Translations under genes and position numbers: made by a program
From: an uncultured Dorea sp.
GTDB taxonomy: Bacteria > Bacillota > Clostridia > Lachnospirales > Lachnospiraceae
Direction: 5' to 3'
Length of the DNA: 64,000 bases
Assembly: GCA_934294775.1 (NCBI GenBank)
Contig: CAKRAH010000009.1
Span: 510-64,509 of the forward strand
Shown here: piece by piece, positions 3,089-32,258 of the stretch
Numbering within the stretch: position 1 is the first letter of the stretch
How the letters are laid out: the number at the start of each line of letters is the position of its first letter
Notes under the pieces: model-generated
Told to the model about the DNA's origin: nothing
The model's database searches: none
The model's input: only the letters and a program-made list of their open reading frames with translations

Positions 3089-3539
3089 TGACAAGATGGT
3101 TGCGAATAACAAAAAAGCATATCATGATTATTTTATACTGGAAAAATATGAGACAGGAATTGCACTGCACGGGACGGAAGTAAAGTCCTTAAGAATGGGA
3201 AAGTGCAGCATCAAAGAATCATTTATCCGTATTGAAAATGGAGAAGTCTTTATCTATGGCATGCATATCAGCCCATATGAAAAGGGTAATATTTTTAATA
3301 AAGATCCGCTCAGAGTCCGTAAGCTTTTGCTTCATAAGTCAGAAATCAATAAACTGATCGGAAAGACAAAAGAAAAGGGAATGGCGATCGTTCCTCTGAA
3401 GGTATATTTTAAAGGAAGCCTTGTAAAAGTAGAGATTGGTCTTGCAAAAGGTAAGAAATTGTACGATAAACGTCAAGATATTGCAAAGAAAGACCAGAGA
3501 CGTGAAGCAGAACGTGACTATAAGATGAAGCTTCGCTAG
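3075..3539 (+). CDS. smpB: SsrA-binding protein SmpB
   Basis: 154 aa with [27 protein letters not shown]...LLLHKSEI, a canonical SmpB sequence. It overlaps the rnr stop by 14 nt. Confidence 0.92.
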
Positions 3540-3619
3540 AGTGTGACATATATTTTGCAGGAATAATTTTTCAGACATGCTCTAGAATAGATTAGGATTG
3601 AACAGGGAGAAGACAGGAT

Positions 3620-3853
3620 ATGGTACCTACAAAGAAGGAAGAATTAAGAAAACTGGTTACACAGACAACCATGGAGACATATGAAGAACTGACACCACAT
3701 CTGGTGCAGATGATTAATGACACAGCAGCAAATCCGGAACTTACCGATGCACAGAAGCAGGATGAAATCTCTTTACATATGATGGGGTTTGTAAAATCAT
3801 GCACCAATGAGATCATTATAGAAGTATTAGCAGACATCCTTGGGCTTGAGTAA
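3620..3853 (+). CDS. Hypothetical small acidic protein (77 aa)
   Basis: ORF with a GGGAGA-type RBS. No family recognised. It occupies a gap that is otherwise non-coding. Confidence 0.4.
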   Translation: MVPTKKEELRKLVTQTTMETYEELTPHLVQMINDTAANPELTDAQKQDEISLHMMGFVKSCTNEIIIEVLADILGLE

Positions 3854-3949
3854 GTGAAAAATATAGAGAAAAATAAACGGGAAAATAATTAGTCATTGTT
3901 GGAAATGTACGAAAATGCATTTTGGACAAACAAAAAGTCAGAAATCTTC

Positions 3950-3978
3950 TTGACAAAAAAAGTTTACGGGGGTAAACT
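3950..3978 (+). promoter_or_regulatory. Sigma-A type promoter upstream of the amt-PII leader
   Basis: TTGACA (3950-3955), a 17-nt spacer, then TAAACT (3973-3978). Confidence 0.5.
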
Positions 3979-3996
3979 ACGGGACATAAAAGCAAG

Positions 3997-4039
3997 GGCG
4001 CTTCGAAAGATAACATTTCGAGGCGCTTTTCTTTTTTTG
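3997..4039 (+). terminator. Terminator-like hairpin 1 in the amt leader (could instead terminate the 77-aa ORF)
   Basis: GCGCTTCGAAA-gataaca-TTTCGAGGCGC followed by TTTTCTTTTTTT. Confidence 0.5.
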
Positions 4040-4096
4040 TAAGATAACTGCCGGGAGCTGTCTGTGGCAATTCCCTGCGGATGCATGATAACACAA

Positions 4097-4148
4097 GGGC
4101 GTGTATATTCTGTGAGTCGGCCACAGAAGGTACACGCTCTTTTTGTTT
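4097..4148 (+). terminator. Terminator-like hairpin 2 in the amt leader
   Basis: GGGCGTGTA..CTGTG-agtcggc-CACAG..TACACGCTC followed by TTTTTGTTT, about 90 nt upstream of the amt start codon. Confidence 0.45.
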
Positions 4149-4236
4149 GAAGGTTGTTGTCATGTATCCGAAAGGAACTGGCGGAGGCGGGGAAAGGACG
4201 TTATCGTACATCTGAAGGATGAAGGAGGTAACATTA

Positions 4237-5990
4237 TGACGAAAGAAGTATTAACGGCCATACAGGAAGCTGTAGGCACACAGGTATTTGGAATATGGTT
4301 CCTGATCGGTGCGGCTTTTGTATTTTTTATGCAGGCAGGATTTGCAATGGTAGAGGCAGGATTTACCAGAGCAAAGAATGCAGGTAACATTATCATGAAG
4401 AACCTGATGGACTTTTGTATAGGAACTTGTGTATTTATCCCACTGGGATTTGGAATTTTACTTGGAGAGGATGCACTTGGAGGATTTATCGGAGTACCGA
4501 CACTTGGAATCTTTACCGATTATGCACATTTTGACTGGTCTAACTTCGTATTTAACCTTGTGTTCTGCGCAACAACAGCAACCATCGTATCCGGAGCAAT
4601 GGCAGAAAGAACCAAGTTCTTATCTTATTGTATTTATTCAGCAGTCATTTCAGCAGTTGTATATCCGATCGAGGCTCACTGGATCTGGGGCGGCGGCTGG
4701 CTTGCAAGCTTAGGCTTTCATGATTTTGCAGGTTCTGCGGCAATACATATGGTAGGTGGAACAACCGCATTTATCGGAGCTGCTCTGGAAGGAGCCAGAA
4801 TTGGTAAATTTACAAGAGACAAAGATGGAAAAGTTACAAAAGTACATGCATTTCCAGGACATAACCTTGTAATCGGTGCACTTGGATGCTTTATCCTCTG
4901 GTTTGGATGGTATGGATTCAACGGTGCAGCGGCATCTACAGGATCCCAGCTTGCTTCAATCTTTATGGCAACTACGATCGCACCGGCAATTGCAACCGTT
5001 GTATGTATGGTATTTACATGGTTAAAATATGGAAAACCAGATGTATCTATGTGTCTGAATGCTTCCCTTGCAGGACTGGTAGCAATTACAGCTCCTTGTG
5101 ATGTGGTAGATGCAGCAGGTGCTGTTATCATTGGTGCCGTAGCCGGATTGTTAGTTGTATTTGGCGTATGGTTCTGTGATTATGTGGCACATGTAGATGA
5201 CCCGGTTGGTGCTGTTGCAGTACATTGCTTAAATGGTATCTGGGGTACGATCGCAGTCGGACTTTTTGCAACAAAGAGTGCACCAGAGTGTACCATCAAA
5301 GGCCTGTTCTATGGTGGTGGTTTCCATCAGCTGGGATTACAGCTTCTTGGTGTTGTAACTGTTATGGCATGGACGATCGTTACGATGACAATCGTATTCA
5401 AAGTAATCGATAAGACAATCGGACTCAGAGTTACTGAAGAAGAGGAAATCGTAGGTCTGGATGTGAAAGAACATGGTCTTGCATCTGCATACGCAGGATT
5501 CAGTTTGATGGATATCACAGAAGGAAGCATGAGTATCAATGAAAATACAGAGCTTGGTGAGAATGATTACGATGAAGCAACAGAAGCTCAGAGAGCAGCA
5601 GCTATCAAAGTGGCAGCTCCGGTAGATCCAGAGACAGGAATCCACAAAGTGGTTATTATCGCAAAACTTTCAAGATATGAGAAACTGAAGAGTGCCTTAA
5701 ATGATCTTGGAGTAACTGGAATGACTGTTACACAGGTTATGGGATGTGGAGTCCAGAAAGGTGCCGGCGAGAAATATCGTGGTGTTGAAATGGACGTAAC
5801 CGTACTTCCAAAAGTAAAAGTAGAAGTTATCGTAGGAAGCATTCCGGTAGAAAAAGTCATCGATACTGTTAAGAGAACACTCTACACAGGACATGTTGGA
5901 GATGGTAAGATCTTCGTTTACAATGTACAGAAAGTTGTAAAAGTACGTACAGGTGAGGAAGATTATGACGCATTAAGAGATGTGGAATAA
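4237..5990 (+). CDS. amt: Ammonium transporter (Amt family) fused to a C-terminal P-II (GlnB/GlnK) domain
   Basis: ATG at 4237 lies 8 nt after GAAGGAGG. About 11 TM segments carry Amt motifs (FMQAGFAMVEAG, DFAGSAAIHMVGG, GFNGAA). The last ~115 aa (IHKVVIIAKL...GVQKGAGEKYRGVE...GDGKIFVY) form a P-II fold with the T-loop YRG. Confidence 0.88.
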
Positions 5991-6076: not shown

Positions 6077-6121
6077 ATGCAAAGTATTCGAAAGAAGCTG
6101 CCAGTGGCAGGTTCTGTAGAT
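6077..6121 (+). repeat. Dispersed hairpin repeat, type B copy
   Basis: atgcaaagtattcgaaagaagctgccagtggcaggttctgtagat. Confidence 0.75.
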
Positions 6122-6191: not shown

Positions 6192-6220
6192 TTGACATAA
6201 AGAGATTCTGGCACTATAAT
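6192..6220 (+). promoter_or_regulatory. Consensus sigma-A promoter for ssrA
   Basis: TTGACA (6192-6197), a 17-nt spacer, then TATAAT (6215-6220), about 48 nt upstream of the mature tmRNA 5' end. Confidence 0.65.
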
Positions 6221-6267: not shown

Positions 6268-6615
6268 GGGCTTGTACTGGTTTCGACGGGGGTCTGGAAG
6301 TTGGAGAAGCCATCCGTAGTGGGACACTACGTTAAAAGTTCCATCTAAATATAAACGCAGACAATGAATTAGCGTACGCAGCCTAATTAGGCAGCAGTCG
6401 GCCCCGGATCATCCGCTGTCCGGGTCACCGGCTTCAAACAGGCGGAGCACTTCGTTTCCAAAGCTTTGAGGAAATGGAAGAATTTATGAAGCTACTAAAG
6501 TGTGTAACCTGTCATTAGGTGACGCATGGAGGGAATGTCAGAATAATGACTGTGATGGGAGATGCTCGAATGGATGGGCTTTCGGACGCGGGTTCAACTC
6601 CCGCCAGGTCCACTA
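6268..6615 (+). ncRNA. ssrA: Transfer-messenger RNA (tmRNA, SsrA)
   Basis: The 5' end GGGCTTGTACTGGTTTCGACGGGGG pairs with the 3' end ...GGACGCGGGTTCAACTCCCGCCAGGTCCA. This gives a 7-bp acceptor stem with G3:U70 and a T-arm GCGGG-TTCAACT-CCCGC. The internal tag ORF GCA GAC AAT GAA TTA GCG TAC GCA GCC TAA (6357-6386) encodes ADNELAYAA. The 3' CCA is not fully encoded (CTA). Confidence 0.92.
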
Positions 6616-6666: not shown

Positions 6667-6710
6667 ACCAAAGTATGCAAGAGAAGCTGCCAGTGGCAGG
6701 TTCTCTGTAT
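6667..6710 (+). repeat. Dispersed hairpin repeat, type A (best consensus copy)
   Basis: accaaagtatgcaagagaagctgccagtggcaggttctctgtat. Confidence 0.8.
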
Positions 6711-6925: not shown

Positions 6926-8005
6926 ATGAAAAAGCGGATTGTAATTGCTATTTTATGTGCCACTATGTCGGTGGGAATGGTTGGATGTAATAAAACGGAG
7001 TCTTCTTCAGATAAGACCCAGACATCAACTGAGAATAAAACAACAAAAACAGATACAGCAAACGATGAAAAACAAAGCAAAGATATCTTTGCGATGGATA
7101 CCTATATGACGGTCACAGCGTATGGAGAACATGCACAGGAAGCCGTGGATAAGGCAGAAGAAGAGATCAACAGATTAGACGGGATGTTATCTACCGGAAA
7201 AGAGACCAGCGAAGTATATAAACTCAATCAGGCAGGAGAAGGAACGGTATCAGAGGATACCGCCTATCTGTTTGAAGAATCAGAAAAGCTCTATAAAGAG
7301 ACTGACGGCGTATTTGACATCTCTATCTATCCGGTAATGGATGCCTGGGGATTTACTACAGAAAATTACAGAGTTCCGGGACAGGATGAAATGAATACAT
7401 TGCTTGAAAATGTAGATGCATCGAAGATTACTTATGACAAGGCATCAAAAAAGATTACTCTTCCGGAAAGAGTAAAGATTGATTTTGGAGGAATCGCCAA
7501 AGGATATACATCTTCCAGGATCATGGACATTTACAAAGAATGTGGAGTGACAAGTGGTCTTGTAAGCCTTGGCGGTAACGTACAGCTGTTAGGTAAGAAA
7601 ACGGACGGAAGTGACTGGAAAGTTGCCGTGGAAAGCCCGGAAGAAGACGGCAATTATCTAGGAATCCTGCAGGCTGCAGATAAAGCGGTTATTACATCCG
7701 GCGGCTATGAGAGATATTTTGAACAGGATGGTAAGAAATATCATCACATTATTGATCCTGCTACCGGATATCCGGCGGAAAACGGTCTGACATCCGTTAC
7801 AATCGTAAGCGATGATGGAACATTGGCAGATGGACTTTCCACATCACTGTTTATCATGGGAAAAGATAAGGCAGAAGCGTTCTGGAAAAAGAACAGTGAT
7901 AAATTCGATACGATCTTACTTACAGATGATAATGAATTATATGTATCTGAGGGAATTGCAGATAAGTTTGAATCTGATTATGACGTTCATGTAATGAAAA
8001 AATAA
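6926..8005 (+). CDS. apbE: FAD:protein FMN transferase (ApbE family), lipoprotein
   Basis: 359 aa. The signal peptide has the lipobox MVG-C. ApbE motifs are present: DTYMTVTAYG, DISIYPVMDAWGF, KIDFGGIAKGY, GGYERYF...HHIIDPATG. Confidence 0.85.
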   Translation: MKKRIVIAILCATMSVGMVGCNKTESSSDKTQTSTENKTTKTDTANDEKQSKDIFAMDTYMTVTAYGEHAQEAVDKAEEEINRLDGMLSTGKETSEVYKLNQAGEGTVSEDTAYLFEESEKLYKETDGVFDISIYPVMDAWGFTTENYRVPGQDEMNTLLENVDASKITYDKASKKITLPERVKIDFGGIAKGYTSSRIMDIYKECGVTSGLVSLGGNVQLLGKKTDGSDWKVAVESPEEDGNYLGILQAADKAVITSGGYERYFEQDGKKYHHIIDPATGYPAENGLTSVTIVSDDGTLADGLSTSLFIMGKDKAEAFWKKNSDKFDTILLTDDNELYVSEGIADKFESDYDVHVMKK

Positions 8006-8095
8006 GGAATGTTAGCAGAAGGAAATATTTGGAACGAAAGATTCCATATAGTACAGTGACATGAAAAGACATAAACATGAAATAGAGGCGAAGTT

Positions 8096-9877
8096 ATGGA
8101 AAAGGAAAAGATTATCAGAAAAATCAAACAGGGAGCACCATTTACATCAGCGGTCGTAGTTGCAGCATGTATCGGGGTGTCGTTAAGCGGGTATCAGGCA
8201 CCGGTGTATGAAGCACAGGCACAGACAAAAGAAACAAAACCAGTCAAGACTGAGGAGACGAAAGCTGAAGAAGCACAGGCAAAAGGTTCTTTTGATCTGG
8301 AAGATGGAATCTATAAAGGAACCGGAACCGGTTATGCAGGCGAGATCAGCGTGGCAGTTACGATCAAAGATAAGCAGATTACAGCGATTGATATCTTGAG
8401 TTCATCGGATGATGCAGCATTTTTTAACCGTGCGAAAGGTGTGATCGACCGCATCATTGCAGGACAGACACTGGAAGTCGACGTGGTATCGGGAGCGACT
8501 TACAGTTCTAACGGAATTATCAGTGCAGTAAAGAATGCACTGACAGGTGAAAAAGACAGCGGAACAACCGGGCAGTCACAGTCGGGCAATGCAGCAGCAG
8601 AAGGAAGTACGCTGACACTTGCAGATGAAGAGGAAGCGGCAGCATATAAAGACGGAACCTACTGCGGAACGGGAACAGGATTTGGTGGTACTTTAAAAGT
8701 ACAGGTTGTGATCAGCGGTGGAAAGATTACATCGATAGATGTGATCGAGAATCACGATGACAGCAGTTACTTAAGCCGTGCAATGGCTCTTATCAATAAC
8801 ATTATTGCAACACAGAGCACGAATGTTGATGTGGTATCAGGAGCAACCTACAGTTCTAACGGAATCAAGAGTGCGGTAAGAGATGCATTAAGACAGGCAG
8901 CGGTAAGCGGAAGCGCAGCAGCTGAAAATGCAGCGGATGACAGCCAGTCATCACAGGATACATCAGATACCACACAGGTAACCGGTAATTTCCCTTATAA
9001 AGAAGGAATCTATTACGGAACAGCAGAAGGTTATAACGGTGACATCGAAGTTGCGGTAGTCCTTCAGGATCAGTCCATCAAAGCCGTACTTGTGACAAAG
9101 AATCATGACGATGCCAGATTCTTCGACCGTGCGATGGAAGTTGTAAAGAATATTATGAAAAAGCAAAGCACCGACGTAGACGTGGTATCGGGAGCAACTT
9201 ATAGTTCCAACGGTCTGATCAATGCAGTGAAAAATGCATTAAAAGAAGCCGAAAAAGCAACGAACGGACAGCAGACGATAGAAGAAGAGAAAAAAGCAGA
9301 CACCACAGAACTTGAAAAGCTTCTGGAAGAAGCAGACGGACTGGTACAGGACGAATACACAGAAGCAAGCTGGGCGGTGCTTGAAGTAAGACTAGAAGAT
9401 GCGAAGAAGCTTGTAGACGCAGATAAGACAAAGATCACGCAGGATGAGGTAGACGAAGCAGTTTCCAATCTGAATCAGGCGATGGCGTTACTTGAGAAAA
9501 AGGACGACGGCGGAGACGATAATGATAATAACATTTTCAAAAATGGAATTTATGAAGGAATCGCGCTTTGTAAACCGGATGAGGATGAAGATTTTGAGGC
9601 ATATAACCTGTCCTTAAAAGTTACGATCAGGGACGATAAGATTGTTGCGGTTACGGATGTGACAGGCGATGGAGATTCATCTAATGATAAATACATCAAT
9701 AAAGCAGCAAACGGAACATCAAGCAAGAAAGGCGTCGCAAGTCAGCTGATCGGCAAATCCGATACAGAAGGAATTGATGTGATCAGCGGGGCAACCTGCT
9801 CATCAAAAGCAATCCTGGAAGCGTGTGATAACGCACTGGTTGCTGCAAAGAACAGTAAGGCAGAAAGCGGAGAATAA
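8096..9877 (+). CDS. Extracytosolic protein with four FMN_bind domains and one FIVAR-like helical repeat, N-terminal membrane anchor
   Basis: 593 aa. There are four ~90-aa repeats, each ending in a flavinylation motif: VDVVSGATYSSNG three times and IDVISGATCSS once. The N-terminal hydrophobic segment is APFTSAVVVAACIGVSL. The helical repeat is ..DEYTEASWAVLE...QDEVDEAVSNLNQAMALL. Confidence 0.8.
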   Translation: MEKEKIIRKIKQGAPFTSAVVVAACIGVSLSGYQAPVYEAQAQTKETKPVKTEETKAEEAQAKGSFDLEDGIYKGTGTGYAGEISVAVTIKDKQITAIDILSSSDDAAFFNRAKGVIDRIIAGQTLEVDVVSGATYSSNGIISAVKNALTGEKDSGTTGQSQSGNAAAEGSTLTLADEEEAAAYKDGTYCGTGTGFGGTLKVQVVISGGKITSIDVIENHDDSSYLSRAMALINNIIATQSTNVDVVSGATYSSNGIKSAVRDALRQAAVSGSAAAENAADDSQSSQDTSDTTQVTGNFPYKEGIYYGTAEGYNGDIEVAVVLQDQSIKAVLVTKNHDDARFFDRAMEVVKNIMKKQSTDVDVVSGATYSSNGLINAVKNALKEAEKATNGQQTIEEEKKADTTELEKLLEEADGLVQDEYTEASWAVLEVRLEDAKKLVDADKTKITQDEVDEAVSNLNQAMALLEKKDDGGDDNDNNIFKNGIYEGIALCKPDEDEDFEAYNLSLKVTIRDDKIVAVTDVTGDGDSSNDKYINKAANGTSSKKGVASQLIGKSDTEGIDVISGATCSSKAILEACDNALVAAKNSKAESGE

Positions 9878-9888
9878 GGAGAAAAAGA

Positions 9889-10323
9889 ATGAGAGAATTC
9901 TGGGTGAGGCTGGTCAGTGCGATTGCTGTAGTGGGACTGATCTTTGGATATAATTCAGTCCTGGATACAAGAGCAAAAGACGATCAGATTGCAAAATTAA
10001 ATGCCAAGATTACCGATGAAAAATCCGGTGATTCCGAAGAATCCTCCGACGGAGCTTATAAAAACGGAACTTATACCGGAGAAGCAGATGGATTCGGAGG
10101 AACGATTGAAGTAGAAGTAAAGATAGAAAAACATAAAGTTGCAGAGGTAAATATCGTATCAGCGGACGGCGAGGATGGATCGTATCTGTCAATGGCAGAA
10201 GATATTATTCCGAAAATTGTAGAGGCACAGAGTGCAGATGTGGATACAATAAGCGGAGCAACCTTTAGTTCTACAGGAATCAAAAATGCAGCAAAAGAAG
10301 CACTGGAAAAGGCGGTAGAGTAA
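9889..10323 (+). CDS. Membrane-anchored single FMN_bind domain protein
   Basis: 144 aa. N-terminal TM (VRLVSAIAVVGLIFGY) followed by an FMN_bind domain ending VDTISGATFSSTG. Confidence 0.8.
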   Translation: MREFWVRLVSAIAVVGLIFGYNSVLDTRAKDDQIAKLNAKITDEKSGDSEESSDGAYKNGTYTGEADGFGGTIEVEVKIEKHKVAEVNIVSADGEDGSYLSMAEDIIPKIVEAQSADVDTISGATFSSTGIKNAAKEALEKAVE

Positions 10324-10324
10324 A

Positions 10325-11197
10325 GTGGCAGAAAAGACAGAGAAAAAGTTAAATGTAAAACAGATGAAAAAAATACATACCTGGTTAAGAGCAGCCATTC
10401 AGTTATTGTATTTTATCTTTATACCATCTGTGTATACCGCAGCATTTGCCGGAGTAAAATACATATTTACACAGATTGGAGCAGGTGAAAAAGTGGCACT
10501 TACTTCATTCGTAAGTGTACTGATCGTCGTATGTGTATATACGATGATCTTCGGAAGGTTTTTCTGTGGATTTGCCTGTGCGTTTGGAAGTTTTGGAGAT
10601 GCAGTAAATGCAATATATAGAGCAGTCTGCAAGAAATTAAAGAAAAAGCCGGTTCAGATACCGGAGCATGTGGCATCTAAACTTGCATATTTAAAATATG
10701 TATTACTGATCATCATCGTACTGATGTGCTATAACGATGTATACAGCAAGGCGCAGGGAACAAGTCCGTGGGATGTATTCTCTATGCTTCATGCAGGAAA
10801 CTTCCGCCTGGGAGGTTACGGGATTGGTCTTGTTATATTGATTTTGTTGATTGTGGGAATGTGTCTGGAAGAACGTTTCTTCTGCAGAAACTTATGTCCG
10901 ATGGGAGCAGTATTTTCACTGGTTCCGGTATTACCGTTATTCTCACTTCACAGAGACCGGGGAAACTGCATTCCAAAGTGCAGTGGCTGTACAAGAAAAT
11001 GTCCATCCGGCATCGGACTTCCTGAGGACGGATCATGGAAGGTAGAGGGAGACTGCTTTCAGTGCCAGAAATGTATCGACACATGTCCGAAGAAAAATAT
11101 CCACTGCGGAGTAAAGGCACTTCGTGGAAATGAAATATGGTTCACAGTACTTAGAGCTGTGATTTTACTTGGATTGTTTATCTGGCTTGGTGTATAG
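10325..11197 (+). CDS. NapH/NosR-like polytopic 4Fe-4S binding membrane protein
   Basis: 290 aa. There are several TM helices, two membrane-proximal motifs (FFCGFACAFG and FFCRNLCPMG) and two C-terminal ferredoxin-type clusters (CIPKCSGCTRKCP and CFQCQKCIDTCP). The GTG start is 1 nt after the preceding stop, and the exact start is uncertain. Confidence 0.7.
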   Translation: MAEKTEKKLNVKQMKKIHTWLRAAIQLLYFIFIPSVYTAAFAGVKYIFTQIGAGEKVALTSFVSVLIVVCVYTMIFGRFFCGFACAFGSFGDAVNAIYRAVCKKLKKKPVQIPEHVASKLAYLKYVLLIIIVLMCYNDVYSKAQGTSPWDVFSMLHAGNFRLGGYGIGLVILILLIVGMCLEERFFCRNLCPMGAVFSLVPVLPLFSLHRDRGNCIPKCSGCTRKCPSGIGLPEDGSWKVEGDCFQCQKCIDTCPKKNIHCGVKALRGNEIWFTVLRAVILLGLFIWLGV

Positions 11198-11273
11198 CCG
11201 GATCATAACAGAAGAGATCCGACGGCGACGGATCCTGAGAAGTAGTCAAACGCATCCATATGGAATTATAAGT

Positions 11274-11317
11274 CACCTTACGTTCGAAAGAATCTGCCAG
11301 TGGCAGATTCCGTAGAT
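11274..11317 (+). repeat. Dispersed hairpin repeat, type B copy with fully paired stem
   Basis: caccttacgttcgaaagaatctgccagtggcagattccgtagat. The stem GAATCTGCC/GGCAGATTC is perfectly complementary, a double change relative to the other copies. Confidence 0.75.
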
Positions 11318-11361
11318 ACCATAGCATACAAGAGAAGTTGTCGGTGGCAGGTTCTCTGCAT
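11318..11361 (+). repeat. Dispersed hairpin repeat, type A copy
   Basis: accatagcatacaagagaagttgtcggtggcaggttctctgcat. The 5'-arm C-to-T changes keep G-U wobble pairs. Confidence 0.7.
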
Positions 11362-11460
11362 TACGGGGATTTGTAAATAGTCTTTAGGGATGCGCAATTT
11401 TTGGGTTATAGGTTAGCGATGGCTAACTTAATAATAAAATTTATCAATAAGGAGGCTTTT

Positions 11461-14400
11461 ATGAAAAAGAAAGAGATGAAGACAAAAGCAATGGCTGTGG
11501 CCATGTCAGCAACAATGGCAGCCAGCATTTGCCCGGCTGTACCGGCAATGGCGGTAACAAAAGACCAGGTGGCAAAAGATGGCGTATATACAAAGACAGC
11601 TCATGTTACAAGAACAGAAGCAGATGTAGACGATGAATGGGATGAATATGACGTTGAAGTCTCTCTGACTGTAAAAGATGGGAAATTCTCAGATATCACA
11701 GTAACTCCGGGTGAAGGGTATACAGATGAGAATAAAACATATCTGGCAAAAGCATACAGTAAGTCAAAAGGTATCCAGACATTATTAAAAGATAAAGATG
11801 CAACAGAAGATACAATTAACGGATGGGATACTGTATCAGGAGCAACAAGATCCTCAACAGCTATTAAAAAAGCAGCCCTGGAAGCAATCCAGTCAGCACC
11901 AGTAGCAGAAGCACCGGTAACAGTGGATACATCTGCTCTGGAAAAATCAATCGAACAGGCAAAAGCGCTGAATGAGTCGGACTATACAGCAGAGACATGG
12001 AGCGTATTAAAAGAGAAACTTGCAGCAGCAGAGACAGCTGTTTCTGAAAAGAAATCCCAGGATGCTGTAGATACAGCAAAGAATGAACTGGATGCAGCAA
12101 TTGCAGGACTTAAGAAAGCAGAAGTGGCAAAAGAAGTTTATGTATTGATGAATATTCCATATAATGCATTTTATCAGGCTGATACAAACAGTAAAACAGA
12201 CGCTGTTTCTTCTGCAACACTTCAAAAAACAAGAGTCAGTGGTCTTGCGGGTGGATCTTATCATGTAGACCCGGAGGGTTCAGATATTAGCGGAGTGACA
12301 TTCCCTGTTAAAATCAGTTCAGATGCGTTAAAGAATTATAAGCAGGTTACGGATGACAGTAAAGTTTCTATTACGACAAGTGTAAAAGGAAATACAAGTA
12401 CAACAGAATATACAGGAAAAGATGCCCTTTTTGAAAGCGAAAACTATTCTTATTATATTTTGAGTGAAGAACCATCATATTATAAAGAAGCATCGGTTGA
12501 ATCTGATGGAACTCTTTCGTTTGGTAAGGTTATAGGAACAGCACAGACATTAAGTGATGCTACAGGAGAATTTTCAACAAAGACACGTTACGGAGATTAT
12601 GAATTAGATATGACTGGTTTGCCAGATTCTATTTCTAAAGTATACGGTGTTGTGATTGGAACGAAAGAAGGAGATAAATACGGACTTCGCCATGTGGAAA
12701 ACATTTGGAAAAAGAAAGAACTTGCATGGAGTACAGGATTTGTTACAGAATCGCATGGAAACCAACTGAGTTATGAAAATTACAAGGCTATGATGGGACA
12801 GACCATTAACCAGGTAACTTATTATACAGATGCAGGAATTTATGAAATTCCGGTGAATATCTATGTGCCGGTTAAATTCTCGGGGGAAGTAAAAGTTGAA
12901 GATACTGAGCTGGAGTCTGGAGAAACAACGTATACAGTCAGTGGTATTCCGGATGATTACGAGGCACAGTACAGCGTAAAAGGGCTTAAAGATGTAAAAG
13001 CAAAAGATGGAAAACTTACATTTGACAGCAAAGATGCAACTCCGGGACAATACACTTTGACAATCAGCGACAAAAGTGGTAAATACGCAGATATTACTAC
13101 AAAGTTCCTTCTTACAACAGATAAGGTGCCGGTTAGCTATGACGAAGAAAGTAATGGTTTAGTACCGGCAGAAAAATATAGCCAGAATGATGCAGATGCG
13201 TACGTGAAAAATATTTCTTCAGTAACAGTAAATGGAGAAAAATATGCAGCAACAGGAAAGGGTTCTGTAAAGATTATTAAAGAAGATGGAACATTAGACA
13301 CAACAGCAAAGCCGTTTGCAGATGCAAAAGATGGGGATAAATATGAAATCACAGTTGCATCAACTGGATATACAACTGATTATGATTTCACATATACAGT
13401 GAACGATCAGAATGAATACAAATATGTATACGCAGGACTTACATGGGCTGAGTACTGGGCAGCAGAAGGTGTACAGGCAGCAGGAGATGCTTCATCATCT
13501 GAGGCAGTAGATACAAAGGGAGAATCCGATAAGGGAGCATTCGATGTTGTAACACGTGCAACAACAAACCACGGATTACACAGAGGAAGCTATCAGTGCT
13601 CATCAGTCATCTATATGAAAGATGGATCTACTTACAGTGTAGCATACTATCCGGAAGCAGACAGCCGTACAACGGCAGTACTGACAAATGGCCAGAAAGT
13701 CACATACAATACAGAGGATATTGACCACTACATCGTAACAGGACTGAAATATGTACCAGTGAAAGTTGCAGCAGCTGATTACGAGGCATTTGCGCAGAAA
13801 TATGCAGTAGTAGAGAATGGCTCAGAGTTAACAGGAGGATTCTCAGAAGGAAATCTTTCAAGCTACTCAGGAATCACAGCAAATGTAACAGAGAACACCA
13901 ATGGTCTTAAGACAGCAACTAAGAATGAGGATGGATCATTCAGCTTCTCAGCAAGAGAAACAGGAACAGAATCCGGAATCACAGGACAGGAATTAAAGAC
14001 AGCACCAACAGCAGAGGATGCAGGACTGACAGTCAAAGAAGCAAAGGGATCATACGGAGAGTTCTTAAGAGTAGATCTGACTCAGAACTATGGAGATCTT
14101 GGAGCAAATATGCAGGCTGTAAAATGGACATATTATGGCGATGACAGCACATACAGCAATGCAAAAGCAACATACGGAACAAAATTCGCATCAGATAACT
14201 GGATGCATAAATCAATGGGAATCCAGCTCGGACTTACTGATTCCTTAAGATGTACCCTTCCAGAGGGAACAGATGGAACCGGATACTGGACAATTACAAT
14301 CTCAGCACTTGGATATAATGATGTAACATATCAGTTCCAGGCAACCGATGAGAACATCGTAAAACCAGATGCCGGAGAAATCAATACAGCAAATCTGGAA

Positions 14401-15243
14401 GCAGCAATTGCCAAAGCAGAAGCACTGAATAAAGATGAATACACAGAAGCAAGCTGGGAAGCAATGCAGGTAGAGTTAAAAGAAGCCAAAGAAGAATTAG
14501 AGGCAAAACACTCACAGGCAACAGTAGATGAAGCAACAGAGCACTTAAATGCAGCAATCGATGCACTGGAAAAATCAGAGACACCTGCAGAAGTAGACAC
14601 AGCAAAACTGGAAGCATCTATCGCCGTAGCAGAAGGTTTAAAAGAAGCAGATTACACAGCAGACAGCTGGAAAGCAATGCAGAATGCACTTGCAACAGCT
14701 AAGGCAGCACTGGAAGCAAAAGAAAGCCAGACAGCAGTAGACAGCGCAGCAGAAGCTCTTGACAGTGCAGTAGCAGCACTTGTAAAGGCTGATTCAGAAG
14801 ATCAGGTCAAAGAAGTATCTACAGACGCACTGGAAAAAGCAATCAGCACAGCAGAAGGCTTAAAAGAGTCAGACTACACAGCAGACAGCTGGAAAGCACT
14901 TCAGAGTGCCCTTACATCAGCTAAGACAGCATTGGCTGAGAAGAAAGATCAGACAAGCGTTGACGCAGCAACAGAGAACCTGAACAAAGCAATCAGCGCC
15001 CTTGTAAAAGCATCTTTAACATCAGGAAGTACAACAACTACAACAGGTACATCCGGAACAAAGACAGGCACAACAGGATCAAAGACATCCGGAACAGCTA
15101 CAGGATCAAACAGCAGCACAAAAGCAGCTAAGACAGGAGATCCGGCAGGTGTACTTGGATGGCTTGGACTTGCAGTTTCTTCACTCGGAGCAGGAATCGG
15201 TGGATTCAAACTGAAAAGAAGAAGAGACGAAGAAGAAAAATAG
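11461..15243 (+). CDS. Giant cell-wall-sorted surface protein: signal peptide, FMN_bind domain, FIVAR repeat, two uncharacterised ~400-aa central modules, three FIVAR repeats, Thr/Gly/Ser linker, sorting-signal-like C-terminus
   Basis: ATG at 11461 lies 6 nt after AAGGAGG. The signal peptide is MKKKEMKTKAMAVAMSATMAASICPAVPAMA. The FMN_bind motif is WDTVSGATRSS. The C-terminus is AAKTGD + hydrophobic segment + KLKRRRDEEEK. The longer ORF from 11401 lacks an RBS. Confidence 0.75.
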   Translation: MKKKEMKTKAMAVAMSATMAASICPAVPAMAVTKDQVAKDGVYTKTAHVTRTEADVDDEWDEYDVEVSLTVKDGKFSDITVTPGEGYTDENKTYLAKAYSKSKGIQTLLKDKDATEDTINGWDTVSGATRSSTAIKKAALEAIQSAPVAEAPVTVDTSALEKSIEQAKALNESDYTAETWSVLKEKLAAAETAVSEKKSQDAVDTAKNELDAAIAGLKKAEVAKEVYVLMNIPYNAFYQADTNSKTDAVSSATLQKTRVSGLAGGSYHVDPEGSDISGVTFPVKISSDALKNYKQVTDDSKVSITTSVKGNTSTTEYTGKDALFESENYSYYILSEEPSYYKEASVESDGTLSFGKVIGTAQTLSDATGEFSTKTRYGDYELDMTGLPDSISKVYGVVIGTKEGDKYGLRHVENIWKKKELAWSTGFVTESHGNQLSYENYKAMMGQTINQVTYYTDAGIYEIPVNIYVPVKFSGEVKVEDTELESGETTYTVSGIPDDYEAQYSVKGLKDVKAKDGKLTFDSKDATPGQYTLTISDKSGKYADITTKFLLTTDKVPVSYDEESNGLVPAEKYSQNDADAYVKNISSVTVNGEKYAATGKGSVKIIKEDGTLDTTAKPFADAKDGDKYEITVASTGYTTDYDFTYTVNDQNEYKYVYAGLTWAEYWAAEGVQAAGDASSSEAVDTKGESDKGAFDVVTRATTNHGLHRGSYQCSSVIYMKDGSTYSVAYYPEADSRTTAVLTNGQKVTYNTEDIDHYIVTGLKYVPVKVAAADYEAFAQKYAVVENGSELTGGFSEGNLSSYSGITANVTENTNGLKTATKNEDGSFSFSARETGTESGITGQELKTAPTAEDAGLTVKEAKGSYGEFLRVDLTQNYGDLGANMQAVKWTYYGDDSTYSNAKATYGTKFASDNWMHKSMGIQLGLTDSLRCTLPEGTDGTGYWTITISALGYNDVTYQFQATDENIVKPDAGEINTANLEAAIAKAEALNKDEYTEASWEAMQVELKEAKEELEAKHSQATVDEATEHLNAAIDALEKSETPAEVDTAKLEASIAVAEGLKEADYTADSWKAMQNALATAKAALEAKESQTAVDSAAEALDSAVAALVKADSEDQVKEVSTDALEKAISTAEGLKESDYTADSWKALQSALTSAKTALAEKKDQTSVDAATENLNKAISALVKASLTSGSTTTTTGTSGTKTGTTGSKTSGTATGSNSSTKAAKTGDPAGVLGWLGLAVSSLGAGIGGFKLKRRRDEEEK
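14371..15012 (+). repeat. Three tandem FIVAR-like coding repeats (~200 nt each) within the giant surface protein gene
   Basis: The peptide pattern [DE]YT[AE][DA]SW[KE]A[LM]Q..L..AK..L..K.SQ..VD.A...L..A[IV].AL recurs three times. The DNA of repeats 2 and 3 is visibly similar (gaYtacacagcagacagctggaaagca...). Confidence 0.6.
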
Positions 15244-15644
15244 GCAGTGTTCATAGAAAAAGAGTATATCATACGATGATTCACTGAGAAGGAGTTTCAG
15301 AAGTGAAAGTGCTCTGTGAACATATCTGATAAAAGGCAGGATATTTATCATATCATGTATGGACTTCTGAAAAGTTAGAATTAAAAATCTAATGATTCGG
15401 AGAACAAACAGTACATGATAAGGTGGAAGTCCTGCCTTTTTTTGCCATGAGTTCGGAAGAGATGTATAAGAAAATATAAATATTTTCACAAAGCTAACAT
15501 AGTTCTTTGTTATAATATAATTAAAATGTCGGAAGGCATGAGGATTTTCAAAAATAATGAAAAATCAGGACATTTATACCATTATGAGAAAAACATTTTT
15601 AATCCATAAGAATTGTAAGAAAGATATACGAGGAGGGCACACAC

Positions 15645-16325
15645 ATGGATAAAATTAAAATTTTAGTAGTAGACGATGAAAGCAGAATGAGGAAGCTTGT
15701 AAAGGATTTCTTAGGTAGAGAAGGATATCAGGTAATTGAGGCCGGGGACGGTATGGAAGCAATGGAAAAATTCTATGATGAGAAGAACATTGCACTGATC
15801 ATTCTGGACGTTATGATGCCGAAGATGGACGGATGGCAGGTATGCCGTGAAGTGCGTCAGGAATCCAAAGTACCGATCATCATGCTGACAGCAAGATCAG
15901 AAGAAAGAGATGAACTTCAGGGATTCGATCTGGGCGTGGACGAATACATTTCCAAACCATTCAGTCCGAAGATTCTGGTTGCCAGGGTCAATGCAATCTT
16001 AAGAAGAGCCAATGTATTGGGCGGTGGTGATGAGATTGACGCCGGAGGTATTCTGATTGACAAAGCAGCACATCAGGTGAAGATCGATGGAAAAGAGATT
16101 GAATTAAGCTTCAAGGAATTTGAGCTGCTTGCGTATTTTGTGGAAAATCAGGGCATCGCATTGTCAAGAGAGAAGATATTGAACAATGTATGGGATTATG
16201 ATTATTTCGGAGATGCAAGAACGATCGATACCCATGTGAAGAAATTACGAAGCAAACTTGGAGAAAAAGGCAATTATATCAAGACCATCTGGGGAATGGG
16301 ATACAAATTCGAGGTTGATGCATAA
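15645..16325 (+). CDS. OmpR-family two-component response regulator
   Basis: 226 aa. Receiver domain (ILVVDDE...LDVMMPKMDG) plus winged-helix Trans_reg_C domain (...TIDTHVKKLRSKL...IKTIWGMGYKF). Confidence 0.88.
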   Translation: MDKIKILVVDDESRMRKLVKDFLGREGYQVIEAGDGMEAMEKFYDEKNIALIILDVMMPKMDGWQVCREVRQESKVPIIMLTARSEERDELQGFDLGVDEYISKPFSPKILVARVNAILRRANVLGGGDEIDAGGILIDKAAHQVKIDGKEIELSFKEFELLAYFVENQGIALSREKILNNVWDYDYFGDARTIDTHVKKLRSKLGEKGNYIKTIWGMGYKFEVDA

Positions 16326-17830
16326 TGAAGATAGAAAATTTAAAAAAAAGGATGAAACCACAGAATATACACCGGTCTTTAAAGACGCAGATGAGTATGG
16401 TATTTGTGGGACTTCTGATCTGTCTGGTAGCAGCATTCATGATCATCAATGGAAGATTTCTGGAGCCATATTATATCAGTAATAAGGAATCACGTTTTAT
16501 CGAACTCTATGAGAATCTGAACAATGTATCCAATGATGATGACTGGGATGCGAAAAAGAAGAATGATTCATTGCTTCATTTTGCAGAAAAGAATAATATA
16601 TCTTATCTGGTTATTGAAAAAGATAACGATGTCCATACCAATGTCCATGATAAGAATATGCTGAAAAATCAGTTGATGGGATATTTCCTGAATCAGGCGC
16701 AGAAAGAAAGCAGTGTGCTCAAATCAACGGATAATTACCAGATCACAAGATCCTGGGATCCGTGGAATCAGAACTACTATATCGAAATGTGGGGCAATCT
16801 TGATGACGGAAGCCAGTTTCTTTTAAGAAGTCCGGTAGAAAGTATAAAAGAAAGTGCGGCAATATCCAATCGTTTCTTATTATATATAGGAAGTATTCTG
16901 ATCGTTATTACGGTTCTTCTGATCTGGTATTTTTCAAAGCGGATCACAGAACCGTTAAGAGAACTTGCAAGATTATCTGACCGTATGGCGGATCTGGACT
17001 TCGAAGCCAAATATACCAGTGGAGGGAGTAATGAGATCGGAGAACTGGGAGCGAACTTTAACCGTATGTCTGAAAAACTGGAAAGCACGATCTCAGAATT
17101 GAAAAAAGCGAACAACAGCCTGCAAAAAGATATTGAACAAAAAGACAAACTTGAAAAGATGAGAAATGAGTTCCTTGGAAATGTATCGCATGAGTTAAAG
17201 ACCCCGATTGCACTGATCCAGGGATATGCAGAAGGGCTAAAAGAAGGGGTTAACGAAGATGCAGAGAGCAGGGATTTCTACTGTGATGTTATTATGGATG
17301 AAGCAGCCAAGATGAACCGAATGGTGAAAAATCTTCTTACATTAAACCAGCTGGAATTTGGTGATGAGGATATTGTATTTGACAGATTTAATCTGACAGC
17401 CCTGATCAGAGGGGTGTTACAGAGTATGGAGATTCTTGCTGATCAGGCGGATGCAACTGTGAATTTCCGTCAGACAGAAGATATCTACGTATGGGCAGAT
17501 GAATTTAAGGTAGAACAGGTAGTGAGAAATTACGTAAGTAATGCATTCCACCATGTAAGCGGAGACAAGGTAATAGAAGTTAAGATGATCGTAGAAGGTG
17601 ATAAGGTAAGAGTCACAGTATTCAATACTGGTACACCGATCCCGGAAGAAGATATTGGTCATATCTGGGATAAATTCTACAAAGTCGATAAGGCGCATAC
17701 AAGGGAATATGGAGGCAACGGAATCGGATTATCTATCGTAAAGGCAATCATGAAGTCCTTCCATCAGCAATACGGAGTAAAGAATTACGACAACGGTGTT
17801 GAATTCTGGTTCGAACTTGATGTAAAATAA
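16325..17830 (+). CDS. Sensor histidine kinase (two TM segments, extracytosolic loop, HAMP, HisKA, HATPase_c)
   Basis: 501 aa. H-box FLGNVSHELKTPIAL, N/G boxes (NAFHH..., GGNGIGLSIVKAI). TAATG start/stop overlap with the response regulator gene. Confidence 0.85.
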   Translation: MKIENLKKRMKPQNIHRSLKTQMSMVFVGLLICLVAAFMIINGRFLEPYYISNKESRFIELYENLNNVSNDDDWDAKKKNDSLLHFAEKNNISYLVIEKDNDVHTNVHDKNMLKNQLMGYFLNQAQKESSVLKSTDNYQITRSWDPWNQNYYIEMWGNLDDGSQFLLRSPVESIKESAAISNRFLLYIGSILIVITVLLIWYFSKRITEPLRELARLSDRMADLDFEAKYTSGGSNEIGELGANFNRMSEKLESTISELKKANNSLQKDIEQKDKLEKMRNEFLGNVSHELKTPIALIQGYAEGLKEGVNEDAESRDFYCDVIMDEAAKMNRMVKNLLTLNQLEFGDEDIVFDRFNLTALIRGVLQSMEILADQADATVNFRQTEDIYVWADEFKVEQVVRNYVSNAFHHVSGDKVIEVKMIVEGDKVRVTVFNTGTPIPEEDIGHIWDKFYKVDKAHTREYGGNGIGLSIVKAIMKSFHQQYGVKNYDNGVEFWFELDVK

Positions 17831-31035: not shown

Positions 31036-31079
31036 GCCAAAGCATGCAAGAGAAGCTGCCAGTGGCAAGTTCTCTGTAT
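31036..31079 (+). repeat. Dispersed hairpin repeat, type A copy
   Basis: gccaaagcatgcaagagaagctgccagtggcaagttctctgtat. Confidence 0.8.
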
Positions 31080-31182: not shown

Positions 31183-31506
31183 ATGGTTTTTAATACAGGA
31201 GCAGCGCTTCTGGATGCAATCGTCCTGGCTGTTGTGTCGCGGAAAGAGGAAGGAACATACGGATATAAGATCACACAGGATGTCAGAAAAGCAATCGATG
31301 TGTCAGAATCTACGTTATATCCGGTCCTTAGAAGATTGCAAAAAGGGGAATATCTGGAAGTATATGACCGGCAGTTCGATGGAAGAAACCGCAGATACTA
31401 TAAAGTGACAGAAAGCGGCAAAGAACAGCTTGCGATGTACCAGACTGAATGGAAGAATTATTCGAAAAAAATCAGCGCATTATTTGAGGGAGGGAGTTTG
31501 GAATGA
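31183..31506 (+). CDS. PadR-family transcriptional regulator
   Basis: 107 aa winged-helix protein: ...GYKITQDV....SESTLYPVLRRLQKGEYLEVY......RRYYKVTESGKE. Confidence 0.85.
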   Translation: MVFNTGAALLDAIVLAVVSRKEEGTYGYKITQDVRKAIDVSESTLYPVLRRLQKGEYLEVYDRQFDGRNRRYYKVTESGKEQLAMYQTEWKNYSKKISALFEGGSLE

Positions 31507-32255: not shown

Positions 32256-32258
32256 CTT

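Follow-up and report, generated by a model that had tools for sequence, protein, structure and literature searches.

We examined a 64,000-nt stretch of DNA from an uncultured Dorea sp. (contig CAKRAH010000009.1, positions 510–64,509, forward strand; hereafter the window, to whose coordinates all positions refer). On its + strand lies a cluster of five co-directional open reading frames (ORFs) within 6926–15243, predicted to attach flavin mononucleotide (FMN) covalently to exported proteins and to pass electrons along them. An earlier note on this DNA had described these ORFs as a putative wall-spanning flavin wire built around an ApbE enzyme, and all five are present with exactly the coordinates it gave. 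The genes and the terminator-like site that follows them are listed here.

6926–8005, + strand: ApbE-family FAD:protein FMN transferase, predicted lipoprotein (PF02424 E = 5e-89, 264/266 profile positions)
8096–9877, + strand: predicted multi-flavinylated protein with four FMN_bind domains, the 4x FMN protein (Pfam FMN_bind in four stretches, summed E = 6e-58, 193.8 bits)
9889–10323, + strand: 144-amino-acid (aa) protein with one FMN_bind domain and an N-terminal transmembrane anchor, the 1x FMN protein (FMN_bind E = 5e-14, 53.1 bits; motif DTISGAT, Thr125)
10325–11197, + strand: NapH-like polytopic Fe-S membrane protein, 290 aa (Fer4_5, PF12801, 37.9 bits, cut-off 22; Fer4_9)
11461–15243, + strand: 1260-aa surface protein, the giant protein (Pfam matches; identical to NCBI WP_296031099.1, "penicillin-binding Tp47 domain C-containing protein", uncultured Dorea sp.)
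15420–15446, + strand: terminator-like hairpin and T-run, where the transcription unit probably ends

The intergenic gaps are 90, 11, 1, and 263 nt in gene order, and the only convincing + strand terminator-like site of the cluster lies 3' of the giant gene; this operon-like spacing and the placement of a terminator-like site after the giant gene only were counted in favor of an operon. The NapH-like gene begins with GTG 1 nt past the preceding stop codon, the spacing that the earlier note had reported, and the same 290-aa product is held at NCBI. Identical products from uncultured Dorea sp. are annotated there as "FMN-binding protein", "4Fe-4S binding protein", and "penicillin-binding Tp47 domain C-containing protein". 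At the DNA level the window is about 80% identical to two loci in Dorea metagenome-assembled genomes (MAGs) over 6.2–24.4 kb.

The hidden Markov model (HMM) searches that the earlier note had proposed gave significant matches for ApbE, FMN_bind, and the NapH-type Fe-S domains alike. The ApbE match is full length, and the protein starts with a basic and hydrophobic leader ending in the lipobox MVGC, which bears out its description as a lipoprotein. It scored 138 bits against the Escherichia coli-type equivalog model NF007774 (cut-off 498) and is thus a member of the family and not that equivalog. All three FMN_bind proteins exceeded the Pfam cut-off of 22 bits (PF04205), the domain of the giant protein with 29.7 bits (E = 1e-6 on the whole protein, 6e-8 on the fragment). 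ApbE enzymes recognize the published consensus D-x-x-[ST]-G-A-[ST] and place FMN on its last residue (PMC12052999). Six sites of the form D-x-[VI]-S-G-A-T, and no more, occur on the three exported proteins, as previously counted, and each is an exact match to that consensus; we estimate that <0.001 such 7-mers would arise by chance in about 2000 residues.

Four of these sites are in the 4x FMN protein (DVVSGAT three times and DVISGAT once; target residues T135, T251, T368, and T567), whose domains are joined by low-complexity linkers, with a helical FIVAR-like spacer between domains 3 and 4 (weak FIVAR match). The earlier note had called this protein N-terminally anchored; its four FMN_bind domains stand, and in view of a possible VAAC lipobox at Cys25 it may be a lipoprotein rather than a protein with a simple signal anchor. 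It is exported with more than one FMN_bind domain and therefore falls within the definition of a multi-flavinylated protein (Meheust et al. 2021). Its domains match the covalent-FMN crystal structures 8p2b (CbFMN4-D1, E = 1.5e-11) and 8p2a, and covalent FMN has been demonstrated on a homologous 4x FMN protein of Clostridiaceae (Tong et al. 2023, PMC10339131). The 1x FMN protein carries a hydrophobic segment at aa 3–26, in keeping with the membrane anchor ascribed to it before, and the position of its gene directly upstream of the NapH-like gene is conserved in relatives.

The NapH-like protein has five to six hydrophobic segments, CX3C motifs at C81/C85 and C187/C191 (Pro follows the latter), as well as two four-Cys cluster motifs at C215–C226 and C244–C254, one canonical (CX2CX2CX3CP) and one variant (CX3CX2CX3CP). 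Against the NapH/MauN model TIGR02163 it gave E = 1e-21 and 77.7 bits (cut-off 213), against NF007013 76 bits (cut-off 234), and against the NosR model E = 3e-14, below the cut-off. Because these scores lie far under the cut-offs and the window contains no nap genes, we take the protein to be a relative of NapH and not its ortholog. Meheust et al. (2021) defined NapH-like flavinylation systems by a PF12801 or K19339 protein that has several transmembrane helices and is clustered with ApbE or FMN_bind genes, and the present protein fits this by its PF12801 match, its hydrophobic segments, and the adjoining FMN_bind and apbE genes.

Tp47-related modules of the giant protein

The giant protein consists, from its N-terminus, of a signal peptide, an FMN_bind domain, a FIVAR domain, Tp47-like module II, and Ig-like/Shr-like HID domains, followed toward the C-terminus by Tp47 module I, FIVAR repeats, a Thr/Ser/Gly-rich stalk, and AAKTGD with a hydrophobic stretch and basic tail. 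Its main features are the following.

11566–11910, + strand: N-terminal FMN_bind domain (aa 64–144; DTVSGAT, Thr129, motif at 11827–11847)
12103–13185, + strand: Tp47-like module II (core aa 215–445 with DAVSSAT; Ig-like beta-sandwich domains aa 446–575)
13378–14385, + strand: Tp47 module I, PBP-Tp47_a and PBP-Tp47_c (PF14889 E = 4e-61, PF14888 E = 8e-77; residues 651–969)
14383–15015, + strand: FIVAR three-helix repeats, a stalk or wall-associated region (Pfam FIVAR E = 2e-15)
15118–15240, + strand: sorting-like signal, AAKTGD, hydrophobic stretch, and KLKRRRDEEEK (from the sequence and its family variants)

The earlier note had described a wall-sorted protein with an N-terminal FMN_bind domain. 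That domain is borne out; wall sorting is plausible, the signal being AAKTGD and not the canonical LPXTG; and what follows the domain is no long stalk, as aa 215–975, most of the protein, hold Tp47-like modules. At the place of the C-terminal signal, family members have AAKTGD (108), SVKTGD, SPKTGD, APxTGD, or LPGTGD, and anchoring across the Tp47-protein family is by SLH domains, FIVAR repeats, or sorting signals. The FIVAR region resembles those of ZmpB, LnbX, and 7jrm. The Shr-like_HID match (PF07550) is weak at 29 bits against a cut-off of 22.3, with no NEAT domain or heme transporter nearby. Relatives of the giant protein number >7900 in the protein collection, and some 90%-identity clusters comprise thousands of members. 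The two Tp47-like modules are likely its business end.

Module I belongs to the family of Tp47, the 47-kDa lipoprotein and "penicillin-binding protein" of Treponema pallidum (TP0574, PDB 1o75), as judged by the two Pfam domains in their expected order and by a fold that matches 1o75. Tp47 is the sole structural and sequence relative of the module: it was matched by the sequence with E = 9e-20 and by the family profile with E = 2e-31, and in a Foldseek search with an AlphaFold2 (AF2) model (mean predicted local distance difference test, pLDDT, 71) 1o75 was the top and only specific match (E = 1e-13, probability 1.00), with template modeling (TM) scores of 0.41–0.44 that are lowered by low-confidence loops. 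No Pfam match was obtained for aa 215–575, and direct BLASTP of module II against module I returned nothing significant; homology emerged with profiles, the module II profile (44 homologs) aligning to the Tp47-module profile with an hhalign probability of 97.6% (E = 3.6e-12, 200 columns) and with the motifs in register. By this profile comparison we place module II in the same superfamily as a divergent Tp47-like paralog of module I. Its AF2 model has a mean pLDDT of 67, with the C-terminal part above 90.

Both modules contain a near-copy of the ApbE target motif. In module I it is DVVTRAT-x-N-H-G-L-H-R (Thr701, 13543–13563), and in the alignment to 1o75 Dorea FDVVTRATTNHG pairs with Tp47 FDAVSRATHGHG. 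The consensus of this stretch over 80 representatives of 50%-identity clusters is D-[ATV]-V-[TS]-R-A-T-x-N-H-G-L-H-R-G-S-[FY]-Q, with the motif D-[ATV]-V-[TS]-R-A-T in 80/80 and D, R, A, T, H, G, R, and Q likewise in 80/80; the segment YGTKFAxDNWMH is also invariant. Module II has DAVSSAT (Thr253, 12199–12219), and D-x-[VF]-[TS]-S-A-T is found in 41/44 members of its family, with D, A, and the final T in 44/44 and a fully canonical SGAT in one member. T. pallidum Tp47 itself has DAVSRAT. Of the positions that the ApbE consensus specifies, these motifs depart from it only at the Gly, which is Arg in module I and Ser in module II. The same position is occupied by T, S, N, K, Q, R, M, or E in 26 of 68 FMN_bind domains fused to Tp47-family proteins, whereas none of the 68 has lost Ala or the final Thr; with Gly replaced in so many true FMN_bind domains, the position appears to be relaxed in this system. 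Changing G to A in the consensus motif leaves about 50% flavinylation (PMC12052999), and ApbE substrates of unrelated folds are already known (PMC10979944). Of the features that we would ask of a new ApbE substrate, the Tp47 modules thus have D-x-x-[ST]-x-A-[ST] at a fixed position and genomic linkage to apbE, and lack Gly at motif position 5. We found no literature linking Tp47 domains or PF14888/PF14889 with flavinylation, and as far as we could find the flavinylation-like motif inside Tp47 modules had not been described before.

The segments with pLDDT <50 in the two AF2 models coincide with the best-conserved parts of the sequence, namely the motif loop and the YGTKFAxDNWMH/YGLRHxENIW loop. 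Such conserved loops of low confidence would fit a site that requires a cofactor and would fit shallow alignments equally well, so that we regard them as a weak hint. A further candidate explanation, that the Tp47 modules are disguised FMN_bind domains, was rejected, as hhalign gave a probability <3% and aligned only the 9-residue motif.

The cluster in other gut bacteria

When one genome per species was scanned with a pattern, 309 species proved to have relatives of the module, and the counts below use the best 80 loci. The PF14888/PF14889 proteins as a whole comprise 369 representatives at 50% identity. Neighbors were recorded within 10 kb of the Tp47-family gene in 81 loci, these 80 and one further relative (L001), and in 24 human-gut metagenome loci of at least 14 kb from an independent set of 80. 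In the genome set ApbE lies beside the Tp47-family gene in 67/81 loci, FMN_bind in 75/81, and a NapH-like gene in 71/81, the loci short of a neighbor being mostly on contigs that end near the Tp47-family gene; in the metagenome set the corresponding counts are 23/24, 24/24, and 24/24. After clustering of the neighboring ORFs only six families recurred: the Tp47 protein, FMN_bind, NapH-like, ApbE, NusG_II, and PF07456. None of the clustered ORFs provided a conserved neighbor hinting at the donor, the direction of flow, or the acceptor.

The hosts of the best 80 loci are Lachnospiraceae (Dorea, Fusicatenibacter, Mediterraneibacter, Blautia, Roseburia, Anaerostipes, Coprococcus, and others) and, outside that family, Coriobacteriia (Collinsella, Senegalimassilia, and Eggerthellaceae) and Erysipelotrichaceae (Thomasclavelia). 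The gene order ApbE, multi-FMN, FMN, NapH, (NusG_II, EetB-like), Tp47 protein is shared by Dorea, Fusicatenibacter, Mediterraneibacter, Roseburia, and Thomasclavelia, and the same genes stand in another order in some Blautia and in Collinsella/Senegalimassilia. Conservation of the five-gene order, which the earlier note had named as a check, therefore extends over many genera in three bacterial classes. Secreted stand-alone Tp47 proteins of 440–750 aa that lack an FMN_bind domain also occur within such clusters. Given the significant HMM matches and the conserved gene order, we consider the cluster a genuine functional unit for extracytosolic flavinylation, of which the Tp47 module is as much a core component as ApbE.

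The versions of the cluster differ chiefly between the NapH-like and giant genes. Most other genera carry NusG_II and PF07456 genes there (compared loci L003, L005, L009, L020, L046, and L053), whereas the Dorea-type operon lacks both and has a 263-nt gap with a palindrome instead. PF07456 is the EetB family, and Listeria EetB is the substrate-binding subunit of an energy-coupling factor (ECF)-type FAD exporter that feeds ApbE (PMC9973259). Of 56 complete clusters, 31 contain the eetB-like gene, as do 21 of the 24 long metagenome loci; its absence here means that FAD export must come from elsewhere in the genome.

Several loci deviate further. In two Coriobacteriia (L029 and L039; Senegalimassilia and Collinsella) the genes for the Tp47 protein, FMN, NapH, and ApbE stand in this changed order and are followed by NusG_II and ECF-type ATPase or T-component fusions, and from its gene content this cluster would amount to one containing a complete FAD-export module. 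In a 65%-identical relative (P0002, locus L001) etfB/etfA and an IS605-family OrfB precede the cluster at 2411–4232, and that contig has many apparent frameshifts, with the ApbE and FMN proteins in pieces. EtfAB next to the cluster was considered as a donor and set aside, being present in this one relative only. Two MAG loci (L010 6849–11455 and L011 1–3504) have a 275-aa truncated ApbE followed by a giant gene starting inside the first FIVAR, with FMN_bind and NapH-like genes missing; a minimal pair of ApbE and Tp47 was rejected on this account, since a deletion appears to have fused a truncated ApbE to a truncated giant gene and the arrangement is probably degenerate.

Proposed electron path, alternatives, and known systems

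Our interpretation is that the five genes form a conserved operon of gut anaerobes for an outward, flavin-based, extracytosolic electron-transfer chain whose Tp47-like terminal module is possibly flavinylated, and we give it a probability of roughly 0.7. Its parts differ in strength. That the genes specify a flavinylation-dependent extracytosolic electron-transfer system is very probable; the giant protein is probably its distal element; and net outward flow is favored with somewhat less assurance. A path from the NapH-like protein through the anchored flavoproteins to the wall protein, as the earlier note had it, fits the predicted anatomy of the cluster. The flavin-wire interpretation of that note is sound in outline; it had already been anticipated in the literature, and it was incomplete in that it missed the Tp47-like modules.

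In the proposed mechanism, FAD would be exported, with the help of an eetB-like ECF subunit in about half of the relatives and of another genome locus here, and ApbE would transfer FMN to the Thr of the six D-x-x-S-G-A-T sites outside the membrane, as it does in NqrC, RnfG, PplA, TP0171, and CbFMN4, for the last of which 8p2b matches the domains present here. A cytoplasmic donor would pass electrons to the NapH-like protein at its cytoplasmic 4Fe-4S clusters, from which they would traverse the membrane, a step assumed because it is so modeled for NosR, PceC, and NapH-like systems. The donor may be ferredoxin, an NAD(P)H-linked partner, or quinol if quinones are present. To our knowledge quinones are generally absent from Lachnospiraceae, so that a ferredoxin or NAD(P)H-linked donor is as likely as quinol. 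The first acceptor would be the membrane-tethered 1x FMN protein, whose gene appears translationally coupled to the NapH-like gene, and the 4x FMN lipoprotein, with its domains on flexible Ser/Thr/Glu-rich linkers, would relay the electrons to the N-terminal FMN_bind domain of the wall-anchored giant protein. We suggest that both Tp47-like modules could then act as terminal redox modules rather than as an inert stalk, with covalent FMN on T253 and T701 bringing the system to as many as eight flavins, and could reduce an extracellular or wall-associated acceptor that serves a fermentative organism as electron sink. This proposal for the modules is made because of the invariant motif, the homology of module II, the relaxed Gly position, and the stand-alone Tp47 proteins in the clusters. 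Covalent flavin on the modules is a tentative suggestion that we hold at a little below even odds.

Several points weigh against the interpretation as a whole or against its Tp47 part. The 263-nt gap between the NapH-like and giant genes (11198–11460) leaves co-transcription in doubt, and the FAD-exporter gene of many relatives is missing from the Dorea version. What we say of function beyond domain content and synteny is inferred. Fold-level homology between FMN_bind and the Tp47 modules is absent; the AF2 models are mediocre and least confident exactly at the motif loops; and Foldseek with the module II model retrieved only generic Ig-like/cadherin-like tandem domains with TM <0.2. The conserved motif could be a structural or ligand-binding element of the Tp47 fold. 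We know of no ApbE shown to accept Arg at the Gly position. Penicillin-binding activity of Tp47 was reportedly described by Weigel in 1994 and by Deka in 2002 and would indicate a function of another sort. In T. pallidum, finally, TP0572 is two genes from tp47 (TP0574) by locus-tag number, the link being drawn from a paper discussed below and from this numbering.

The strongest alternative, which we think has a considerable chance of being right, holds that the Tp47-like modules are not redox active and constitute a wall-binding, peptidoglycan-binding, or adhesin-like scaffold that displays the FMN_bind domain, the motif being structural or ligand-binding. There would then be six flavins in total, the last of which (T129) would directly reduce the acceptor or a free shuttle. 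The Pfam name of Tp47, penicillin-binding, suggests an affinity for peptidoglycan peptides; the neighboring Ig-like, Shr-like HID, and FIVAR domains are of kinds that surface adhesins typically have; and both the lack of fold homology to FMN_bind and the Arg at the Gly position speak for a scaffold. However, a scaffold would not by itself call for a motif that is invariant in all 80 modules and kept in 41/44 paralogs, that follows the ApbE consensus except for Gly, and that is canonical SGAT in one paralog, nor for the relaxation of the same Gly position in true FMN_bind domains of the same proteins. Stand-alone Tp47 proteins without FMN_bind in ApbE/FMN/NapH clusters are hard to explain if the module merely carries FMN_bind, and the proposed penicillin-binding motif SVTK of Tp47 sits in an insertion that is absent from the family.

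A reversed chain is unlikely. In it the surface protein would oxidize an extracellular donor and the flavins and NapH-like protein would deliver the electrons to the cell, on the model of NapH-like proteins next to alcohol oxidases. The sequence does not fix the direction, and NapH-like modules are said to serve "reductases or oxidases" (Meheust et al. 2021); however, the neighborhood encodes no oxidase-type catalytic domain, quinone-pool enzyme, or terminal reductase, and Dorea and its relatives are, as is generally accepted, fermenters that benefit from electron sinks. Reduction of ferric iron or processing of heme captured by the surface Shr-like HID is very improbable: the HID match clears its cut-off and Meheust et al. 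(2021) describe flavinylation clusters as often linked to iron uptake, but the match is weak, behaves as a generic Ig-like spacer, and is missing in many family members, and iron, heme, or siderophore transporters, P19/FTR1, and NEAT are absent from the window and not conserved in 161 loci.

The central flavin-wire idea is already published as a hypothesis. NapH-like flavinylation clusters, multi-flavinylated proteins, and FIVAR/SLH wall proteins are all on record from Meheust et al. (2021, eLife 10:e66878), who suggested that complexes span the wall. Their clusters share with the present one ApbE, a PF12801 Fe-S protein, a separate FMN_bind gene, a multi-FMN_bind protein, and a large FIVAR surface protein, and their model shares Fe-S clusters across the membrane and hopping along flavins, possibly across the wall. 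Their large proteins are "unannotated" and Tp47 is not mentioned, whereas Tp47 modules are recognized here; neither Tp47 nor PF14888/PF14889 occurs in the text of that paper and the supplements searched. The new element is a Tp47-like terminal module with an invariant near-canonical motif and obligatory linkage to apbE.

Listeria monocytogenes has an extracellular electron transfer (EET) system (Ndh2, demethylmenaquinone (DMK), EetA/EetB, PplA, and FmnB/FmnA) that resembles the Dorea cluster in belonging to a Gram-positive organism and in having an ApbE-type enzyme, FmnB, that flavinylates an FMN_bind surface lipoprotein; it also shares an eetB-type FAD exporter gene with many relatives of the cluster. 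The window, as the earlier note had observed in part, contains no Ndh2, menaquinone/DMK genes, EetA/B, NusG_II homolog, or reductase. Because Ndh2 (K03885), DMK genes, and EetA are lacking, the cluster does not qualify as an EET locus of the Listeria type; the membrane step would fall to a NapH-like Fe-S protein, and in place of the two flavin sites of PplA there are six to eight predicted on three proteins together with a putatively wall-anchored terminal protein. NosR and PceC have the same kind of membrane Fe-S module (CX3C(P) and four-Cys ferredoxin-type motifs), which works with extracytosolic covalent FMN, but in them FMN_bind is fused to the membrane protein and serves NosZ or PceA, whereas here it forms a separate 144-aa protein with no known reductase. 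CbFMN4 and SaFMN3 (Tong et al. 2023) likewise have tandem FMN_bind domains, each with covalent FMN on Thr; they were studied in isolation for flavin content, and a redox potential was measured for SaFMN3 only. Multi-heme conduits such as the Thermincola wall cytochromes and Shewanella Mtr are a functional analogy, with several cofactors on envelope-spanning proteins that lead to the surface; the cofactor there is heme and not flavin, there is no sequence relationship, and conduction along a flavin chain is a proposal.

Tp47 shares with module I the motif FDAVSRAT-x-x-HG followed by Q and the segments TENTNGLK, YYGDD, and YGTK. Like the giant protein it is exported, in its case lipid-anchored, and its organism has a periplasmic ApbE (Ftp). 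It differs in standing alone as one module, in having additional insertions (SVTK is within one of them), and in missing part of the YGTKFAxDNWMH segment; a redox role or a flavin has never been reported for it. Its penicillin-binding motifs, reportedly named by Weigel in 1994 as SVTK, TEN, and KTG, would correspond to SxxK, [ST]xN, and K[ST]G. SVTK, as part of a Tp47-specific insertion, is absent from the family profile, KTG aligns to MHK-S-M-G, and only TEN(TNGLK) is conserved, which suggests that the features proposed to make Tp47 penicillin-binding are not features of the family. A search with a Tp47 fragment rebuilt from the PDB alignment gave no match in the protein collection, and a metagenome scan with the same fragment retrieved gut Firmicute loci only, at ≤38% identity. 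A 2025 review gives only host-interaction effects for Tp47. Deka et al. (2015) found a recognizable flavinylation motif in only two T. pallidum proteins, TP0171 and the integral membrane protein TP0572; the latter, numbered so close to TP0574, we count in favor of the proposal for Tp47.

Taking these observations together, we suggest tentatively, and with less than an even chance of being right, that the Tp47 fold is an unrecognized class of ApbE substrate, that the family provides terminal redox modules in gut Firmicutes and Coriobacteriia, and that syphilis Tp47 is a periplasmic flavoprotein acting with TP0572 and not primarily a penicillin-binding protein. If so, a new fold would join the short list of ApbE substrates and the flavinylation motif would be widened, which matters for genome mining and flavin tagging, and a biochemical function would be at hand for Tp47, which has served for decades as a diagnostic antigen of syphilis with no agreed physiological function; the Tp47 link suggests a testable function for it. 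This class of operon is common in the human gut, and identification of the acceptor would account for the disposal of electrons at the surface of Lachnospiraceae and Coriobacteriia that are strict fermenters, and would also test covalent-flavin chains as a replacement for multi-heme cytochromes across the Gram-positive wall.

Neighboring genes and intergenic repeats

The other sizeable ORFs of the window are housekeeping genes (RNase R, SmpB, an Amt-PII fusion, a two-component system, hisHF, HflX, AddAB, FtsEX, a PcsB-like protein, pyrimidine and purine synthesis genes, ClpC, and RadA, in addition to a tmRNA gene). The tmRNA gene (6268–6615, +; Rfam RF00023, 162.6 bits) lies directly 5' of the operon behind a perfect TTGACA-17-TATAAT promoter-like site at 6192–6220, and an arrangement of tmRNA followed by apbE also occurs in a Dorea MAG locus (L071). 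A riboswitch 5' of apbE was considered and rejected, as the 930-nt region contains the tmRNA gene and no riboswitch. The genes of trans-translation are grouped, with RNase R (932–3088) and SmpB (3075–3539) a few kilobases 5' of the tmRNA gene. A single ORF (4143–5990, +) encodes Amt fused to a C-terminal P-II (GlnK-like) domain, 615 aa from TTG, with the start codon uncertain.

Directly 3' of the operon are two-component genes (15645–17830, +) for an OmpR-type response regulator and a HAMP histidine kinase; this pair was considered as regulator of the operon and is probably not a dedicated one, since it adjoins the operon only in Dorea-type loci (L004 and L071) and not in other genera. Farther on, two adjacent large membrane proteins of 850 and 727 aa (43407–48139, +) combine ABC2_membrane_3 and DUF3533 in a YhgE/Pip-like architecture. 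The gap before the giant gene contains one further feature.

11290–11310, strand not assigned: palindrome TCTGCCAGTGGCAGATTC, resembling repetitive extragenic palindromic (REP) elements, in the 263-nt gap before the giant gene

An intergenic repeat of about 40 nt around the palindrome GAAGCTGCCAGTGGCAGGTTC was found in five places against 0.05 expected by chance (881–901, 6094–6114, 6683–6703, 11290–11310, and 31052–31072), some with a partial second copy nearby, and could be a REP-like element or an operator. Of these sites, one precedes rnr, two flank the tmRNA gene, and one falls within the gap ahead of the giant gene; another copy is just upstream of genes for a HAAS-domain protein and then a DUF4097 "toastrack" protein (31503–33278, +).

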